A stretch of 56,474 nucleotides of DNA, filler included, from Diploschistes diacapsis (Eukaryota), in the NCBI GenBank assembly GCA_023645945.1. It is 6 parts of 6 records of this genome, joined end to end, with 100 filler letters (N's around TTAATTAATTAA, not from the genome) between each part and the next. Parts side by side here need not be neighbours in the genome. Positions count along the whole stretch, not along the records: positions 18,880 to 28,210 come from JALAIB010001056.1; 5 more parts are not named here. The stretch is one strand, 5' to 3'. Each line of letters starts with the position of its first letter. Position 1 is the stretch's first letter. Shown in pieces: positions 9,341 to 28,210 of this stretch. Below the pieces are notes generated by a model. It was not told the origin of the DNA and ran no database searches. It saw only the letters and a program-made list of their open reading frames with translations. The position numbers were made by a program, and so were the translations under genes.

Positions 9341-9440
9341 NNNNNNNNNNNNNNNNNNNNNNNNNNNNNNNNNNNNNNNNNNNNTTAATTAATTAANNNN
9401 NNNNNNNNNNNNNNNNNNNNNNNNNNNNNNNNNNNNNNNN
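9341..9440. other. Artificial contig spacer
   Basis: N44-TTAATTAATTAA-N44 (stop codons in all six frames). Confidence 0.98.
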
Positions 9441-18879: not shown

Positions 18880-19992
18880 TGCCACGCCAACCCCCTTTCC
18901 TCCTCCCCACCTCGGGACCTGACAATCCTCATCTCCACCAAATCCGGCACCGGCCAATCCCCTTCCTTCTTCATCTCCATCCTCCAACCCCTCCTCTCCC
19001 TCCTCGGTCTGGCCCCAGAATCCTACACGCTCCACTCCACATCATCGGAGCGCTGGATCTCCGACTTCGCCGTCTCCACCCTCTGCGCCCGTGCAAACGC
19101 TGGGATCCCACAGACCATCATCCTCCTGTCCGGCGACGGCGGCGTCAGCGACATCGTCAACGGCCTCTTCAGCCAGCCCCAGAGCGAGCGCTACGTGAAG
19201 CCCACCATGGCGCTGCTGGTCCTGGGCACGGGCAACGCGCTCGCCAACTCCTCGGGCCTGAACCGGGGCGCTGCGAAGGGCTTGCCGGCCCTGCTGCGGG
19301 GCAGAGCGAGGAGGGTGCCGACGTTCGTGTGCAGGTGCGCGCCGGGCAGCGTGCTGCTCGTGGACGAGGGCCGGGGCACGGAGGAGTTGACGGTCGACGA
19401 CTCGGGGCGCGGGATCGTGCATGGCGCTGTGGTGGCGAGCTGGTGTCTTCACGCGAGCCTGGTGGCCGACTCGGATACGGCCGCGTATCGGAAGCACGGG
19501 GCTGCGAGGTTCAGCATGGCGGCGAACGAGCTGTTGGCTCCGGCGGATGGGAGCGCCTCGCACGTTTATAGGGGGAGGATCACGACGTGGCAGAGGGATG
19601 GAAAGGGGGAGGTGGCGAGGAAGGTGTGGGAGCGGGAGGGGCATATGTATGTGTTGGCTACGCTGGTGTCGAATCTGGAGGCTGCGATGAAGGTTTCGCC
19701 GGAGTCGAGGCCGCTGGATGGACAGCTGAGGTTGGTGGGGTTCGAGGCGCTGCCGAGCGAGAAGGTGAAGGAGATCTTTGGTATGGCGTTCGATGGGGGA
19801 AGGCATGTGGAGCACCCGGAGGTGGACTACGAGCAGATCAAGGGTCTGAGGATTGACTTTTTAGAGAGTGATCCGAGGTGGCGGAGGGTTTGTGTTGATG
19901 GGAAGATTGTGAGGGTGCCGGAGAATGGATGGGTGGAGATCTGGAGGGAGCAGAAGGATGTTGTTGATCTCGTTGTTGATCATCAGATATAG
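18880..19992 (+). CDS. Diacylglycerol/sphingosine kinase-like catalytic domain protein, 5'-truncated
   Basis: Open frame from the contig edge with ILISTKSGTG, ILLSGDGGVSDIVNG, LGTGNALANS, WCLHASLVADSD, RRVCVDG. Confidence 0.85.
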   Translation, partial: CHANPLSSSPPRDLTILISTKSGTGQSPSFFISILQPLLSLLGLAPESYTLHSTSSERWISDFAVSTLCARANAGIPQTIILLSGDGGVSDIVNGLFSQPQSERYVKPTMALLVLGTGNALANSSGLNRGAAKGLPALLRGRARRVPTFVCRCAPGSVLLVDEGRGTEELTVDDSGRGIVHGAVVASWCLHASLVADSDTAAYRKHGAARFSMAANELLAPADGSASHVYRGRITTWQRDGKGEVARKVWEREGHMYVLATLVSNLEAAMKVSPESRPLDGQLRLVGFEALPSEKVKEIFGMAFDGGRHVEHPEVDYEQIKGLRIDFLESDPRWRRVCVDGKIVRVPENGWVEIWREQKDVVDLVVDHQI

Positions 19993-21400
19993 CTGATGAA
20001 TGGTTCATAACGCAAGTTGTTAACGGTTCAGATACAGCGCTCGTTCAGTCGTGACGGATATCGTATGTTGCAATCTTGACAGGTTGACTGCCAGTCCCAG
20101 TTCACTCACGCCCAGTTCAAGCACATTCCTATCAGCATCTATGCGAAATGCTGCCTTCACGCTGCCATGCCAGTTTGCGAAGGAACTAATATGTCAGCAT
20201 ACACGATAACATGTTCACCAGCGATATATGCTCCTGGTCAACATTGTAGTCTTTGTAATGGCAAATCGGCGTGCAGCACCAGCTTAGTAGAACCAGCCAC
20301 AGGCAGTCATCTCGAAGGCTTGAAACTACCGGTAGCCAGGGTGTTTATCAATTCCCAGCACAAGAACCAGGTGGTAAGGGCATAGCCATGTTATGGTCCA
20401 TCAACTGAGCCAAAATAACATCCACTGTTAATATCAGACAACAAAGGCAACGCGTTGAGAGCTCCTTAGACCCTCCCCATTACGGGTGTTTCATGTAGAT
20501 TTTGTATCTGGGAGGTTTGTCCTCGAAATAAGTGGTCGCCATCAGTACAGCTACCTATCCCCATGCCTAGCGCTTAATCCCATTCCCACTTTTTGTGAGC
20601 ATTACGAACTGTTACCGGCGCCGCTGATTCCTTAGCAACCAGGTGATATTAAGAATAACTTGCATACTAGACACCTTGTTCCACCGCTCTATCCCATACC
20701 AGAGCTTCGGGGGATGCTTCAGATCAATCAAGGACAGAATAGGTCTGAGTGCATCTCCCGCGCTCTCTCTTGTGGGCCCAAAAGGGCCGGAAACAAACGC
20801 TCAGAAGGAGCGGAACAACCATAACCGCTGCAGGAATGCTTATAATGCCTGAGTATCATTTTAGGTAGGGTTTGCTTTGGTAATCCTCATATCCAAGGGA
20901 GAAGTGTTTGCAAAGCAATGAATAATTCGGTGAGACAAATAAGCAAGATTATTCTTCATGGTCTCTTCAATCAGCAAAGAAGAGAGCCTGATCAACTGTC
21001 AAGATATTATTGGATAATTCGCTTAGCTAGGATCTCTGCTTATAAAGGGCCTCGCTTTCTATTTACGGTTTGGACTCTTCCGCATCAAAGGCTTTCGCGA
21101 CAATATGATATTCTTGAATAAGATAGGCTATTGCATCCGACGAGGATTTCGTCTATTGCAGCACATGCGCCCACAACATCATCCAAGTTGCGTCTTCGGC
21201 CCAAGGAACGAGAGGCAGCTCTAAAATCGAATCTCTCGCGAACACGACATTGAGAACGAAGCAGTAGAAATCGCTATGGCGTTGCTATTGCTTGGACGAG
21301 CACCTTCTGAGGGGAACCTCACCGCTCTATAGTCATCTGCGTCGAATGGATCAACTGTATCCTCCTGGACAGTAAGAGCTGGAATGCCTCCCCAAGACCG

Positions 21401-21831
21401 TTAAGCGATAGTCTGAGCCTCGTCTCGGGAGGCTATGGGCTCGCTACCCTTTCCATCACCTTGGACTTCAATATCTGCCTCCGCCGACCAGATGGAAGGT
21501 GTATCCTTGCCGCGGGAGGCCAGGGGATTAGTGCCTACTGTATCTGTTTTGGCTGAAGCACCTGGCCACCACATGAGAGGTGTATCCTCGCCGCGGGAGG
21601 CCAGGGGATTAGTGCCTACTGTATCTGTTTTGGCTGAAGTACCTGGCCACCACATGAAAGGTGTATCCTCGCCGCGGGAGGCCAGTGGAGAGCTTTGTGG
21701 GCCATCCGGTTCTAGAACAACGGTCAGAACGATATCAAGAATGAGAAGCAGTCGTGCCTACTATTGGATAGAGGAAGACTTTGGGCCAAGGCGCACAAAG
21801 TGCTCCCGAGAAGCATCAAGGACAACTTCAT
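21401..21831 (-). CDS. Putative RiPP (dikaritin-type) precursor peptide, 126 aa, signal peptide plus repeated cores; exons 21831-21762 and 21711-21401
   Basis: Spliced translation (50-nt intron GTAGGC...CTGAC...TAG, 21761-21712): MKLSLMLLGSTLCALAQSLPLSNKPDGPQSSPLASRGEDTPFMWWPGTSAKTDTVGTNPLASRGEDTPLMWWPGASAKTDTVGTNPLASRGKDTPSIWSAEADIEVQGDGKGSEPIASRDEAQTIA*. Lies about 1.5 kb from a DUF3328 gene. Confidence 0.8.
21498..21685. repeat. 81-bp tandem repeat (about 2.3 copies) encoding the 27-aa precursor unit
   Basis: GGTGTATCC recurs at 21498, 21579 and 21660; the units are nearly identical. Confidence 0.95.
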
Positions 21832-22470
21832 CTTTGCGGAAGAGGGCTTGAGAGATTTTTGAAGTCGTTCAATCAGGATGTTTTGAATGGTTTTAAAGAT
21901 CCAAACACGAGATGAAAGAGTTATTGAGTGTTTAAATAACCGTAGACCAGTCTCATTGCCCCTCCCAAGTTGTGTGGAGTTGTCTCAGGCCTCGATCCAG
22001 TGCATGAGGTGCACACTTAATCGTCCAAGAAATAGGGGAATGTCCTTTGATACACCGCTCACGACGACTATTGATGCGAGTAAAAGCTTTAATGCAGCTC
22101 AAGAGAGGTCGATTCTTCTTTCTGATGTTCATGATGCAGAAGAGGGTGCACTGTGAGCGGATATGTTTGCCTACAACACCTGTACGTACAACTCGACATG
22201 CATCTCTATGGGTAAGGCACCAATATACTAATAAAGTTTAGCTCAATGGTGAGCATCACCTGCGTGTTCAACGAACAGGAACAGTTTTACGAGAGTGGTA
22301 GGTCGGAATGATACGAATGTTGCACTGCATCAAGTCGACATGCACAGCCTCAAATCCAGGCTTTCCGTGGGTAACCTGCAATACATGTAGCATTGAGATT
22401 GTCCACATCTGTTATCATCGGCGTAATTCGTTAACCATCGTGCTCAACCTCTGGGGACTCTTGTGCAGTC

Positions 22471-23269
22471 ATGTCCGCCACAATCAACATCGTCCCAGCT
22501 ATGGAGGCCGATTTACCCTTGATAGCCAAACTCGCCGTCACGTCCATGTCTGTCCATCTTCTCTTCCGAATCATTTACCCCAGTAATAACCCGCTCGACA
22601 CCACCAAGGCAGAGCACGATGTCCTCAAGGATCTTCAACATCAGGCCAAAAATCCAGCCGCCCGCATTTTCAAGGCTTGTTCCACAGAGAACGGGGCGGA
22701 TATCGTCGGTTATATGATGTTTCGATTCGCGGATGGCCCAATCGATGACGTCATCGCACCTGCATCAGACAAGATAGTCAGCTCAGCGGCCGCTGAAGCC
22801 ACTACGAAGCTTGGTAACGATGGGGGAACGACCAATGTCGCGTTCCTGTCCAAGGTGAGCAGCCTGCTGAAGCCGGCCTACGCAAGGCACATGGGCGGGA
22901 AAGCCCACATCTGTAAGTCCTTCCCAACCCACCTTCTTGAATGGGCCATGTCGAACGAGATCAGCGCTGATGCACCGGCTTGGGACAGACTGGCACCACC
23001 TGTCGGTGTGGCCGCACTGGCAGAGAAAGGGGGTGGGGACTGCGATGATGCGCTGGGCGTTCAATGAGTTCGATCTCGACCACTTGCCCATCTATCTAGC
23101 AACCCAGACTCTCGGAGAGGCAATGTACAAGACTTTGGGGTTTCAAGTTGCCGAAATTTTCGACGTCGATCTTAGGGATTATGCGCCAGGGTATTTGGAG
23201 GGCTACGGACTGCACCGCATCGTTTGCATGCTACGACCCCCTGTCGCCCAATCTGTTATTGAGAACTGA
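22471..23269 (+). CDS. GNAT-family N-acetyltransferase (240 aa); exons 22471-22912 and 22989-23269
   Basis: Intron GTAAGT...GCTGAT...CAG (22913-22988) joins HMGGKAHI-YWHHLSVWPHWQRKGVGTAMM (acetyl-CoA motif A, QxxGxG). Also IYLATQ and MYKTLGF. Confidence 0.88.
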
Positions 23270-23364
23270 ACACCCTTTTTAGATCTTGCACCTATGGTGG
23301 GACTCATATTTGCTTGAAGAGTATACTGAAACATTCATGAGATGTTTAAGAAATAAATTGAATT

Positions 23365-24192
23365 TTAAAGATAAAGCGCCTTGCTTTCGGCCCATCTGAT
23401 GAGACTCTCGTAATCTTGACATTGGTGGTCTATTCCGATACCCGAGATGATTCGCGTTCCTGGGATATTCGGTTCAAGCGTGGCATCTGCAGCACACATT
23501 AACGCCTGCCGCAGGTAATCAACGCAGTGTATTATATGGTAATTAAACTCGTCAATCTTGGCCCTAGCGACCTCGGGATGAAGGGTCAGATCGTAATAGA
23601 TGCGACGAATGGAATTCTGGGCTGGTGAGTTAAACGACCACATTAAAGAGGCTTCCTCTGTCCATCAGGACTTACAAGGCAATGCATTTGATGGAACACC
23701 GCAACTCCCGCAATCTCCGGCTGGTCACTGGTATCGCCTTTAAGTGGAATGAGGCCTACAGCCTCGGACTTGCCGTTGATCTGATGCGAGGTGTGGCCCC
23801 CTTTGAAGACGAACTGCATTAGCTTCCTGCCTGAGAAAAGCCTATCGAGCTGACCCACCGGGGAAAAGCTCCTTCCAAGCGTTGTCTGTCTCGAATGATG
23901 GTGCTTGCCCGAAAGTCTCATTTCTCGTGAAGTTCTTCCTCAGACTTTCCCGCAGGAATGGAGCAGGAAACCCTCCTGCTGGGTTGCCAGTGGCCGTGGA
24001 AGAGTCGGTCTTCCTTACCGCCGCGATTGCAAAGAGTATCGAGACAGTCAGAAGAACTAAAGTCCATACTGTTCGTAAAACATCGCCTAACCGTAGTTTC
24101 GAGGAAGGAATCTTGATCTCTTCAAGTAGGGATTCGTCGGATCCTTTCGATGCGGCGAGAAATGGCTCAGAGTCAAGTGAGTTGCGGGCCAT
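23365..24192 (-). CDS. UstYa-like / DUF3328 oxidase (236 aa); exons 24192-23859, 23800-23676, 23616-23365
   Basis: N-terminal TM helix (VWTLVLLTVSILFAIAAV), PSFETDNAWKEL, and two HxxHC motifs: VFHQMHCL and HIIHCVDYLRQALMCAADATLE; C-terminal HQCQDY. Introns 23858-23801 and 23675-23617 are canonical and restore the frame. Confidence 0.93.
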
Positions 24193-24479
24193 TGGCGAGT
24201 GTTGAGGTAACAATTGAAGAGTTGAGTACGATCCATTACGGAGAGGGCGTTTAAGTAAGACCGTAGACTTTTCGATTTGTGCGGAATGAGTCCGAATGAT
24301 GCTTCTGTTCCGGTGTCCATAAAGCCATCATCCACTCGTTACGAGATCAATTACCCACTGTGGTCCGCTGATCGGTAAAATGATAAGCAAATAGGCGACC
24401 ATGGTGAAAATAGGTAACAACGGTTATTACCAGTGATTTGCTAGCTCAACCAGGCATTTTCGTACTTATCCTTACCTCA

Positions 24480-25550
24480 GTAGATACCTCAGACTATATC
24501 CTAACGCGCTAGTTGCGCGCCGGCCGGTTTGTCTCGAAAACACTACCTGCTCTCCGCTCACTCTCCACATATAATATGCCTACCAAGTAATTTAGCTCAT
24601 ATCTAGCTCCCATAATAATTTGTATATATTACATATACGAGCCATATTACGCCATAAGCGTACCCATTTCCGACGCATTTACATAGATCATCCAAAATTA
24701 ATTTTATAATAAATACTGTCAGAATACTAACCTAAATAGGGTAGTCAGATTGCTTACTAAGCTTCTAGCATGTTTAAATATTCTAGAAGGTTCTAGAATA
24801 TTCTAAAACATAATAGAATATTATCGAAGATAATCGAATATTATCGAATATCATCGAATATTCTAGAATATTCTAAAATATTCGGCTTATTAATGCATGG
24901 AATAATTTAAAAGGGTAAAGAACATTCTAGAATAATGATTACTAATTACACTAGCGTGAAATGTGCCTATAAAAGGCCTCTCACCCTCCATTGTTCCTAG
25001 TTATAACCTTCAACCTCTTCAATATCTTCACTGTATAATAGTCAGCTACCAGGCTAGGCAGGCTAGGATTATTCCCTAGTTAGGACTAGCTGCAGAATAC
25101 ACTCTTAGTCATCAGTTATCTATTAGGACTTCCACCACTTTCAACACAACCCTTATTTATTTATTTGATTTTTAAAGCGTGAAGTATGAAATGAATTTTT
25201 AGGGATATAATGCTTACAATTTAAAAAAGGTGAAGTGTAAGGATGTAATTTTTAATAATTATTTAGTTTTTAAGCTTTAATTACGTACCAGGAGTTTGGG
25301 GACGCAATCCCCGAAAAAAAAGCATGGTTTAAAGGTGCAACCCCTCATGACTTACCTAGTTTTTTAAGCCTAGATTTTTTATTTAGTACATACTGCTTCG
25401 CTTAGGAACTGCGAGGCTGTTTACCGACACTTGATATTTCTGTTTTATAGTTTATATATAAATAAGGACCGCGGTTGCATTATTGCTTTTAGATCATCTC
25501 TTATCTTTTTAAGCTAGCATTCTACTTCCTTAAGTGTGAATCACCGTCCA
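24480..25550. mobile_element. AT-rich RIP-like relic containing a possible solo-LTR-like segment (about 24717-25146)
   Basis: TG...CA-bounded segment with internal (A)ATATTCTAGA/ATATTATCGA short repeats and a TATAAAAGG box at about 24968. No clear target-site duplication. Confidence 0.4.
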
Positions 25551-25821
25551 GAAACACAATGCACGATCTACGATTTACAAGTATGTCTGCACGATGGCAT
25601 CGGTGTGCAACGTGAAACTGTTAGGAAAGGCTGTACCTTGAAACTATTTTCAACTACCTGGTGCCACAGAACTGTGTAGCCTGCAGAATCCTTACTACGT
25701 CAAGAACGCTAGTAATAACCATACTCTACCTCCGTAACCACTATATCCCAATGCCACGGAGGCCGAAAGCAGCGTTCCATGCCATCAAGCCACAACAACT
25801 AAGAAGTGCGTGTGCATAGCG

Positions 25822-27208
25822 TTAAAACTGGATAAAATCTTCTTGCCTTGACAAAGCCTGGTCTTCTAGCCCACCGGCTTCGAGTATGATGGCATCGCCT
25901 AGAGTCTCGGTGCCTGTACTGTCAGTAATACTAGGATTGCTTGCTTTTCCCTTGGCATAAACCTGTATTGCTTGGACAGCATGTTGTCTAAGCTGGCCGG
26001 CCCTATCCACATGTCGGAGACGACACTGAGCATTTAAACATTTACCTTCCTCAAAATAACCTGGACACTCGAACCTGTGCTGTGCAGGACAGGACGTTCC
26101 CCTGCTACAAAAACCAAAGCAAGAAAATGCCCAACATATCTCTGCAGCTGGTTTCACACGAACGTGTGGATAGCGGCAAGCTGACTTGAAACATGTACCT
26201 CGAATGAAGTGCACGCAAGCTGGAACACGTTCGTACGTGAGTTCATGGGATAAGTCGCAGTTCTGGTCTTGCTGGCACTCGCCATGTTTGAGGAAGTCAC
26301 GACATACGGCAACTTTTGCTGGATCATGACCGAAAGGACAACGAGAACCGAGGGGACATCTTCCTATCACACAAGTTAGTCTTGGTCATCCGCTAGTGAA
26401 GCCCCATCATAATTCTACTTGATGCAGGACAGAGGGGGAAGAGAAACGGTACCAGTCTTAGTAAACCTTTTGCACTGTTGCGTTTTGATTGTAGCGGTCG
26501 GTGTGCTCCTAAGCCGTTCATGTTTAGCTGAAGTATATATCCGGAAAATTGCCTGGCCTTGCTGATTGGGCTTACCCGTGGCTGTTTGACTGCAAATCAA
26601 AATGGCCAGCTCCTATGGAATGAGAGAGCCAGAGCTGTCGAGAATTACCAGGTCCTCCTTTACAATATCTTGTTAGATGCACAGACGAGTCAGTATGGAG
26701 ATACGGGTCAGAGCCCCAAGTTACATCTTCATACCTGATTTTGCCAGTCAAGATATTCTGCTTGTGTACTGAAGGGCTGATTAGCTGCAAATGCCGATCG
26801 TGTTTGGACACCCATCCCTCTATTGGCATATAGCTATCACAAGAAGGCTCTGTCGACACTGGGGATCGTGTCTGGTCTAGGATCTCCAAGGCGGAGCCGT
26901 GGACGTTATGAGATAATGCTCTCGGGGTCTGCTGGATGACTATTGATCGATGGTGGTGACCAGGCATGCGAGTAGATACTTTTGTGATTCTACCTGTTCG
27001 AGGATGGACATGCCCACATACAGTGGACTTAGTGCTTAGGGTTTGGGGACGTGGTATATTAGCAGTGGGTGGCTGCTGAAGTGATTCTTGTTGATCTCTA
27101 TGAAGATTGATCCGACCTTATAATTGTTATCGCTGTTAATTGGCATTGATTGGTGAGCTTACCTGCAAGCTGTGAGATGCGAGACAGTATATCTTCGTCT
27201 TCGCCCAT
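25822..27208 (-). CDS. CCCH zinc-finger protein (ZC3H3/Red5-like), 4 exons
   Basis: Start MGEDEDILSRISQLAG-RINLH; WVSKHDRHLQLIS; tandem C-x8-C-x5-C-x3-H-type fingers (CKRFTKTG-RCPLGSRCPFGH, CRDFLKHGECQQDQNCDLSH, CVHFIRGTCFKSACRYPH...). Introns at about 27162-27117, 26575-26509 and 26452-26364 restore the frame. Confidence 0.75.
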
Positions 27209-27299
27209 TTTTGATCATGAGATCACTGTAGCTGGCAAGACCAGACACATCTGTTTAATACTGTTGTGGAATTGGTGCGCAGGTCCCTAGCGATAATAA

Positions 27300-28210
27300 C
27301 AAAGTGGCTAAGATTTCTTAACTAGGAAGTTATTCTTAGCCTACCGAACCTACTTAAATTCACAAAGGGTTTACGTTGCAAAGTTAATAAAATTGGCATG
27401 ATGACTTGGGTACTTTTTCGAAAATAATAACTAGTTTTCCTATAATATGTTGGACGGGGCTTCCGGCCACCTTTAGATTCCGGCCGCTTTAAACCTTCAT
27501 CGCTAATATTCTACGGATCATTTATTTGTCATAATTAAAATTTAATCCATGCGAGTAATTTTTTTAACTTGTTTAACGGTCTATCCGGTTACTTCCCCTT
27601 CTGGCCATTTTAAATCATTATTATCATTCTATTTTCAATCTTTCTCAACAATAGCAGTCTCGCTTCGAAATAAATCGTTATTAATAGAATTGTGAGATAA
27701 GATATGCAGTAGGGTGAAACGCCAGTGCAGGAAAGGATGCTACTCTACCGGGGGCTGGGCCTGATCCGGAAGGATTAGGTGTAGCTTAGACATCTGCAGG
27801 TAAAAGGTTTCGATTCGAAAAGCTGAAGAAGAAACTATCTAAATGGGAAGAAGGTACCGTTAATTAGTGTAAATGCTAGACTTACCGGGATTCAGAGATT
27901 ACCCGTTTATACAACCATTTGCTAATCTTGTCGTGTTTTAACAAGCATTTGGGTATTGATTTTGCCGTGGCTTAGCAAATATTTAGGTATTAATCCTATC
28001 GTGGCTTGGTAAGTACCTGAGTACTAATCCTACCGTGGCTTAGCAGGCCCAGCTTAGCAGGCCTTTGGGTTAAACTATTTCATTATTTCTTTTTTTAGAT
28101 GTTTATATTTCTTATAAACGCGATATTCTTTTTTAATTAATTTTTATCTCGATTTTTATTTCTTTTTTAATTTGTTTAAAAGGATATTTATTATTTTTTT
28201 ATAATAAATG
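27300..28210. mobile_element. AT-rich RIP-like relic with degenerate ~33-bp repeats (CGTGGCTT core, about 27930-28050)
   Basis: No ORFs, high AT/TpA content, three CGTGGCTT(A/G)G units; runs into the gap. Confidence 0.4.

Follow-up and report, generated by a model that had tools for sequence, protein, structure and literature searches.

The window analysed here, a 56,474-nt stretch of Diploschistes diacapsis DNA (assembly GCA_023645945.1), consists of individual contigs put end to end, with N runs between them that start at 9341, 18780, 28211, 37638, and 47057. One N run was read through and carries a TTAATTAATTAA linker, and neighbours across the joins are artefacts; for the gene described below, the true neighbourhood is limited to its own contig (G000:C65, hereafter C65; 9331 bp, about 18880-28210). 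This contig carries a precursor gene on the minus strand (21831-21401) that starts with an ATG at 21831. Exon 1 (21762-21831; 23 codons plus 1 nt) encodes this start and a hydrophobic, signal-peptide-like N-terminus; a predicted 50-nt intron (21712-21761), with a GTAGGC donor, a CTGAC branch site, and a TAG acceptor, separates it from exon 2 (21401-21711), which encodes a short pro-region, 2.5 repeats of 27 aa, an acidic tail, and the stop. With the intron, which is predicted from sequence, removed, the product is 126 aa long and free of internal stops, whereas without splicing a stop is reached after 35 aa. Hydrophobic residues make up roughly the first 16 positions (Kyte-Doolittle mean over 9 residues up to 1.97, a value that depends on the predicted intron).

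Tandem Repeats Finder reports a period of 81 nt (27 aa) at 21487-21689, in 2.5 copies with 94% matches and a score of 364. Units 1 and 2 differ at 2 of 81 nt (F/L and T/A), and unit 3 resembles them over LASR-G-(E/K)-D-T-P and is diverged thereafter. All four Arg residues of the protein lie in one motif: LASR at Arg36 (21674-21685, a putative Kex2 site with an aliphatic P4 and Arg at P1), Arg63 (21593-21604), and Arg90 (21512-21523), and IASR at Arg119 (21425-21436), after which a 7-residue tail follows. Between these sites stand the candidate cores F-M-W-W-P-G (21641-21658) and L-M-W-W-P-G (21560-21577), with boundaries that are putative, and the corresponding S-I-W-S-A-E of unit 3, which has a single Trp (21479-21496). 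The repeat units are as an earlier note on this DNA had written them, and its statement that Tyr and KR/RR are absent holds for the 126-aa product, which contains 0 Tyr, 5 Trp, and no KK/KR/RK/RR pair. A Pfam profile search of the precursor gave no match above the cut-off, and thus no folded domain or anchor. The feature is confirmed as a real gene for a small, probably secreted multicore precursor.

Two intact genes, both within 2.8 kb, accompany the precursor gene. The first (22471-23269, plus strand), oriented divergently from it, encodes a 240-aa GNAT acetyltransferase (Pfam PF13508, E 4.9e-7; predicted intron 22913-22988). The second (23365-24192, minus strand), 1.5 kb from the precursor gene, encodes a 236-aa UstYa/DUF3328 protein (Pfam PF11807, E 1.9e-15; predicted introns 23801-23858 and 23617-23675) with one hydrophobic, TM-like segment from residue 41, HxxHC at 148 and 180, and further Cys residues at 194 and 219. 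Judged by its sequence, this anatomy matches the published description of the family as dicopper enzymes that are anchored in the membrane, face the lumen, and carry HxxHC(x)nHxxHC (PMC12435403). On the precursor's other side lies a lipid-kinase-like gene fragment, and the flank running to the contig end (24600-28210) contains AT-rich, repeat-like stretches, with no further tailoring gene recognised in it. Two short tandem arrays in this flank (24777-24883 and 27965-28045, with periods of 10 nt and 34 nt) sit in AT-rich, TpA-enriched DNA and resemble degraded repeats. Among the scanned ORFs of the 9.3-kb contig, none was recognised as encoding a tyrosinase, methyltransferase, peptidase, NRPS, or PKS.

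Near-identical relatives of the locus, here called X2 and X3, occur in two independent runs. In X2, which comes from an independent study, a single contig spans the 5' part of the precursor gene together with the GNAT and DUF3328 genes; this retained linkage, along with the intact DUF3328 gene adjacent to the precursor on C65, bears out the claim of a DUF3328-linked multicore precursor. Among 40 of the 113 differences, the X2 precursor shows the changes N23T, T40A, L69F, N85S, and I104T and no alteration of an Arg or Trp; two more changes, both synonymous, fall in the codons for the Pro and Leu that open the first PLASR. In X2 and X3 alike, the differences listed for these two codons are all synonymous. 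Position 21577 encodes Phe in every X2 contig piece covering it, so that the Leu of core 2 is a local single-base variant and the proposed F and L congeners find little support. The summed depth of X2 at this position (262 vs about 62) hints at extra repeat copies. In X3 (depth 2.8), exactly two repeat units (162 nt) are skipped in frame, which may reflect a real allele or an assembly collapse. The indels listed also include a 1-nt deletion at 23029 near the acetyl-CoA motif of the X2 GNAT gene and, at low depth, a 1-nt deletion in the X3 DUF3328 gene; two further indels, beyond those listed, could compensate.

Beyond X2 and X3, no precursor homologue was found in protein, metagenome, ESM Atlas, or HMMER searches. 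With exon 2 as query, a word-indexed protein search gave no usable candidate (0/7), none of 523 pattern matches in metagenome contigs was confirmed, the ESM Atlas returned no usable match, and the genome itself returned the query only. P0003, the sole match of a full HMMER scan with this exon (E 2.7e-5), was rejected as repeat-inflated: it is a singleton, Arg/Pro-rich protein with no hydrophobic N-terminus, no Pfam match, and no W-W core. Because the only homologues found are two near-identical relatives, the constant and variable parts of the precursor cannot be separated. Searches with the last exon of the DUF3328 gene were likewise blank among longer proteins (0/51 candidates) and metagenome contigs (0/146), which reflects weak sensitivity rather than absence, and in the PDB gave weak syntaxin coiled-coil matches only, again a matter of weak sensitivity.

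The precursor can be compared with others in its own genome, where the PF11807 profile has 53 matches on 27 contigs. Stretches around DUF3328 on all 27 were scanned for repeats in stop-to-stop frames, and a short repeat ORF was found beside DUF3328 on 11 of them and on none of the other 16; most of these ORFs have a signal-peptide-like start upstream, in several cases on a separate small exon. No repeat ORF was seen in the control set of 20 stretches surrounding other GNAT matches (175,592 bases, inspected by eye for single-exon repeats). KR/RR is absent from 5 of the 11 precursors, namely those of C65 itself (LASR/IASR), C291 (L045:3140-3530; IVNR/IANR, with one IANR followed by DA-repeats of the Ste13 type), C106 (L050:3488-3800; LNAR), C4240 (L047:2491-3120; pentamers such as DLASR and DVAAR), and C1968 (L037:3300-6400; VEVR and VEAR, with one RK). 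Three others—C348 (L048:1733-4970; VAGR/VTRR/VTKR), C3848 (VHER/IRKR/VHKR), and C3821 (L032:7048-7434; VEAR/EKR)—place monobasic and dibasic sites in the same register, C160 (L049:4708-5253) has YETR followed by KR/RR, and C2835 and C1890 have KR. Over ten precursors, with C4240 left out, 24 distinct monobasic Arg sites were counted and 12 of them have an aliphatic P4, compared to 36/199 in ordinary ORFs (P 4e-4); the difference between monobasic and dibasic sites (12/24 vs 4/12) is not significant (P 0.48). Mature segments lack Tyr in 4/11 and contain Trp in 5/11. From these counts, the two apparent oddities of the C65 precursor are common in its own genome.

Several of these loci have features of their own. 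The C291 precursor is Tyr-free, has a core ending in N-S-W-S-A-K, shares W..S-A-K with the C65 precursor, and lies beside a convergent pair of DUF3328 genes. Its DUF3328 protein matches that of C65 at 47% over the last exon; the shared W-S-A-K follower made it a candidate for the nearest paralogue, which held for this exon but not over the full model, where C3848 and C1557 score higher. In C348, a GNAT gene, a DUF3328 gene, and a Trp-containing, Tyr-free precursor form a second cluster of three genes, built like that of C65, and C1968 combines Trp- and Tyr-containing cores with DUF3328 and GNAT genes. The DUF3328-linked C106 precursor consists of D-P-P-V-L-N-A-R repeats, in which there is no aromatic residue. 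C4240 encodes a secreted protein of about 40 pentamers D-x-A-(A/S)-R, all of which fit aliphatic-x-x-Arg, with DUF3328 adjacent. C3821 is of the KR type with K-E-D-F-V-D-F-Y cores, nearer to the ustiloxin-type pattern of ED then aromatic than C65 is, and the R-C-L-A-G-F cores of C160 (Cys, C-terminal Phe, no Tyr) lie between two DUF3328 genes.

We regard it as reasonably probable that the C65 gene, from a lichen-associated ascomycete, encodes a multicore RiPP precursor of the dikaritin type (ust-RiPS), which Kex2 would cut at aliphatic-x-x-Arg and whose core DUF3328 would oxidise; the cluster would be a minimal one, with one DUF3328 oxidase and one GNAT enzyme. Gene anatomy, linkage, motif pattern, kexin substitution, and GNAT enrichment are observed here, whereas we infer each chemical and proteolytic step, and their order, as follows. 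The signal peptide would take the precursor into the ER/Golgi, where the membrane-anchored dicopper DUF3328 enzyme would oxidise the aromatic core (F/L)-M-W-W-P-G. The ordinary kexin of the genome would then cut after each (L/I)-A-S-R, the aliphatic P4 offsetting the non-basic P2; with Ala in place of the Asp210-equivalent, one acid of the S2 pocket is lost, which may aid this cleavage. Exopeptidases would trim away both flanks of the core, the acidic lead-in G-E-D-T-P and the follower S-A-K-T-D-T, and the GNAT enzyme may N-acylate the released core.

A Tyr-free core is not a marked departure for this family. In a survey of 1758 DUF3328-linked KEPs, Tyr is present in 65.6% and Trp in 20.5%, and one widespread type combines Trp with Pro (PMC7329392); about 34% therefore lack Tyr, and the cyclisation of victorin involves Phe and Leu (PMC9233826), so that calling the C65 core unusual in this respect was an overstatement. 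AprY is a dicopper, O2-dependent cyclase that forms Tyr-O to Phe-C-beta links (PMC12186524), and plant BURP cyclases, which are also dicopper enzymes with a His arrangement likened to that of DUF3328 (PMC12435403), join the indole N or C of Trp to sp3 carbons (PMC11253845). DUF3328 enzymes also hydroxylate or halogenate non-ribosomal products (PMC12435403). By analogy, and because no Tyr is available in the core, a single cross-link from the Trp indole (N or C) to a neighbouring aliphatic carbon or amine appears the most likely product, an assignment that we make tentatively; Trp or C-H hydroxylation, or desaturation, would come next. Trimming of Gly, Glu-Asp, and X-Pro (Thr-Pro, or Ala-Pro in X2) would leave Phe N-terminal. 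The asperigimycins reportedly come from DUF3328 enzymes and involve both Trp and Tyr. No DUF3328 cross-link through Trp alone was found in the literature searched, most subscription papers being outside its reach, and motif searches of paper supplements returned nothing, a blank that is uninformative for the KEP survey, whose main table lists accessions (PMC7329392).

Kex2 might instead free linear, unmodified peptides of a signalling type, with the DUF3328 and GNAT enzymes acting elsewhere. Many KEP peptides are linear, several of them with terminal Trp motifs (PMC9769878), Tyr has been called mandatory for the ustiloxin, phomopsin, and asperipin-2a cyclisations (PMC7329392), and DUF3328 enzymes also serve NRPS/PKS products (PMC12435403). 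We nevertheless consider this rather unlikely: the adjacency of precursor and DUF3328 is systematic (11/27 vs 0/20) and kept in X2, and no NRPS/PKS was recognised on C65. An alpha-pheromone is excluded among such peptides, since the mature part lacks Cys and no XA/XP dipeptide stands right after Arg; the KR plus XA/XP dipeptides of ascomycete alpha-pheromone precursors are absent from this one, which has a DUF3328 neighbour, whereas pheromone KEPs are almost never DUF3328-linked according to the accessible text of the survey (PMC7329392).

Within the RiPP reading, the protease deserves separate consideration. All four Arg residues of the precursor fit an aliphatic P4 with Arg at P1, three of these sites being copies of one another, and are followed by G-E, G-E, G-K, and D-E. 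Kex2 tolerates variation at P2 and prefers an aliphatic P4, LxxR being a published motif (PMC8528282; bioRxiv 10.1101/2020.05.27.120113); it favours acidic residues at P1', P2', and P4' (PMC2515848), and KEPs expressed in Pichia were cut after a single Arg (PMC9769878). The "non-canonical processing" proposed in the earlier note thus goes too far, as LASR fits LxxR and V-x-x-R interchanges in register with KR/RR in three other precursors; because of this interchange, Kex2 is the likely protease at the ASR sites, as far as sequence can indicate. The suggestion that the ED motif of the ustiloxins is retained is also weak, given that ED is followed here by Thr-Pro, that unit 3 has KD, and that ustiloxin and phomopsin precursors have EDYXI (PMC6339444); the acidic prime-side preference of Kex2 explains G-E-D equally well. 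The KEP survey definition requires KR/KK/RK/RR between repeats (PMC7329392), and the C65 precursor, with no dibasic pair, falls outside it and would be missed by such a survey, as had been anticipated.

A protease other than Kex2, such as a yapsin-type monobasic endopeptidase, could in principle cut the same Arg sites in the same cluster. Ser, the P2 residue here, is poor for yeast Kex2, being outside the top five alternative P2 residues in the accessible part of the source (PMC8528282), and KEP peptides persisted in Coprinopsis kex knockouts (PMC9769878). A lone Lys follows the Trp core in C65 and also in C291 (there within W-S-A-K), after which a yapsin-type enzyme could also cut. This alternative appears improbable to us, considering that three precursors interchange monobasic sites, with aliphatic P4, and KR/RR in one register and that no peptidase gene was recognised on C65.

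The kexin was examined because Ser is a poor P2 residue for yeast Kex2. At least one kexin locus was detected in the genome (G000:C1324, L066:1093-2853, minus strand). Aligned with yeast Kex2 (E 6e-151), it has Ala opposite Asp210, a residue belonging to the four acids of the S2 pocket whose conservation among fungi has been described (PMC2515848). Among the best 120 of 6099 kexin homologues, Asp is the commonest residue at the equivalent position (97), followed by Glu (12), Ala (9), and Asn (2); all of the top six (86-100% identity) have Ala, and the nearest named homologues among the matches listed include lichen-forming ascomycetes. As read from these alignments, the substitution is a lineage trait and not a sequencing error, and it may relax P2 selectivity. 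A pattern search for the alpha-pheromone gene, intended as a control for P2 usage, did no better than chance, with 2 matches against 2 for the control.

Least probable of all is that the gene encodes a secreted or cell-wall repeat protein that stays unprocessed, or that the cluster is decaying and unexpressed. In favour of this, the spacers are Thr/Ser-rich, X2 and X3 have possible frameshifts in neighbouring genes, X3 shows a loss of two repeat units in-frame, and the cluster adjoins AT-rich, repeat-like DNA; against it, all three reading frames are intact in the genome, Arg occurs at motif positions only, the P-L codon changes seen are synonymous, and no folded domain or anchor is present (no Pfam match over the cut-off).

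Returning to the dikaritin-type reading, the role of the GNAT enzyme can be approached through the genome. Of 30 PF13508 matches, 4 have a DUF3328 match no more than 2 kb away (C65, C348, C1968, and C1034) where 0.14 would be expected (P 1e-5, or 4e-4 without C65, under a uniform-placement model). Three of these four loci have a Trp-containing precursor with aliphatic-x-x-Arg sites, and the fourth, C1034, is a 3.4-kb contig. A survey of lichen fungi describes DUF3328 clusters, among them a GNAT-flanked clan, in which, as far as its accessible text goes, no repeated precursor was found (PMC12048977). From the enrichment and this clan, the GNAT enzyme is probably more than a bystander. Acetyl-CoA chemistry is normally cytosolic, and the GNAT protein has no clear signal peptide; because of this contrast with a luminal peptide, and because of the deletion in X2, direct N-acylation of the released core can be put forward as a possibility that we are more inclined to doubt than to accept.

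The precursor probably makes a new modified peptide that standard gene searches would miss. Because KR/RR is missing from 5/11 precursors in this one genome and several encode the signal peptide on a small exon of its own, a search relaxed to aliphatic-x-x-Arg could recover many that have been missed, and the "missing precursor" question of lichen DUF3328 clusters becomes directly testable. The C65 locus comprises three genes and is easily expressed, offering a way to ask if Trp can be cross-linked by a DUF3328 dicopper enzyme in the absence of Tyr and if a fungal RiPP is tailored by a GNAT enzyme, and the kexin S2 substitution provides a one-residue test of protease-substrate co-adaptation. 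In our view, the interest lies less in the single gene than in the wider pattern of monobasic precursors, kexin S2 change, and GNAT linkage. Taken as a whole, this pattern might mean that a lichen-associated lineage whose single kexin has Ala for the Asp210-equivalent has expanded a hidden set of DUF3328-linked aliphatic-x-x-Arg precursors, a subset of which, at the three GNAT loci, would yield N-acylated, Trp-cross-linked, Tyr-independent cyclopeptides. This broad proposal is speculative and on present evidence unlikely to hold in full; if true, it would explain the lichen GNAT-DUF3328 clusters reported without precursors and provide a DUF3328 enzyme that cross-links through Trp alone.

Among known systems, asperipin-2a, with its precursor AprA and single DUF3328 enzyme AprY, resembles C65, whose precursor is probably secreted as well, in having a multicore precursor, an aromatic-rich core, and no tyrosinase in the accounts available (PMC12186524; PMC7329392). 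C65 differs in its Trp-Trp-Pro core without Tyr and in its monobasic (L/I)ASR rather than dibasic sites, and has a GNAT gene where the asperipin-2a cluster has a reductase and a transporter. The epichloecyclin system (GigA/GigB/GigC/KexB) likewise has one DUF3328 enzyme and 27-mer units of core plus follower, and the LXKR kexin site of GigA places Leu at P4 as in C65; GigA has Lys at P2 and a conserved Tyr, and its cluster includes a methyltransferase and its own kexin (PMC10540207), none of which was recognised at C65. Precursors of ustiloxin and phomopsin share with C65 the repeats, acidic residues past the cleavage site, and a nearby DUF3328 gene, and have a signal peptide, for which the N-terminus of C65 is a candidate; C65 has no EDYXI, no KR, and no tyrosinase or methyltransferase recognised on its 9.3-kb contig. 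The victorin precursor provides another Tyr-free DUF3328-type RiPP core (PMC9233826), although its product has no Trp in the link and is extensively modified and chlorinated. Lichen RiPP Clan R2 of the Parmeliaceae, to which C65 is likened by description, also has GNAT-flanked DUF3328 in lichen fungi, but with two conserved flanking GNAT copies where C65 has one, and with no repeated precursor noted in the accessible text (PMC12048977). Outside the RiPPs, K2PP effectors likewise combine Leu at P4 with Arg at P1 while P3/P2 vary, and their LxxR pro-domains are removed by Kex2 in vitro (PMC8528282; bioRxiv 10.1101/2020.05.27.120113), although these are single pro-domain cuts of folded proteins and not repeated cores. 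Lyciumin- and stephanotic-acid-type burpitides parallel the proposed dicopper cross-linking of the Trp indole (PMC11253845), but the BURP family of plants is unrelated and the analogy is for chemistry only. The C65 precursor would work like a dikaritin precursor yet lacks the dibasic sites, and is thus a variant rather than a plain member of that group.
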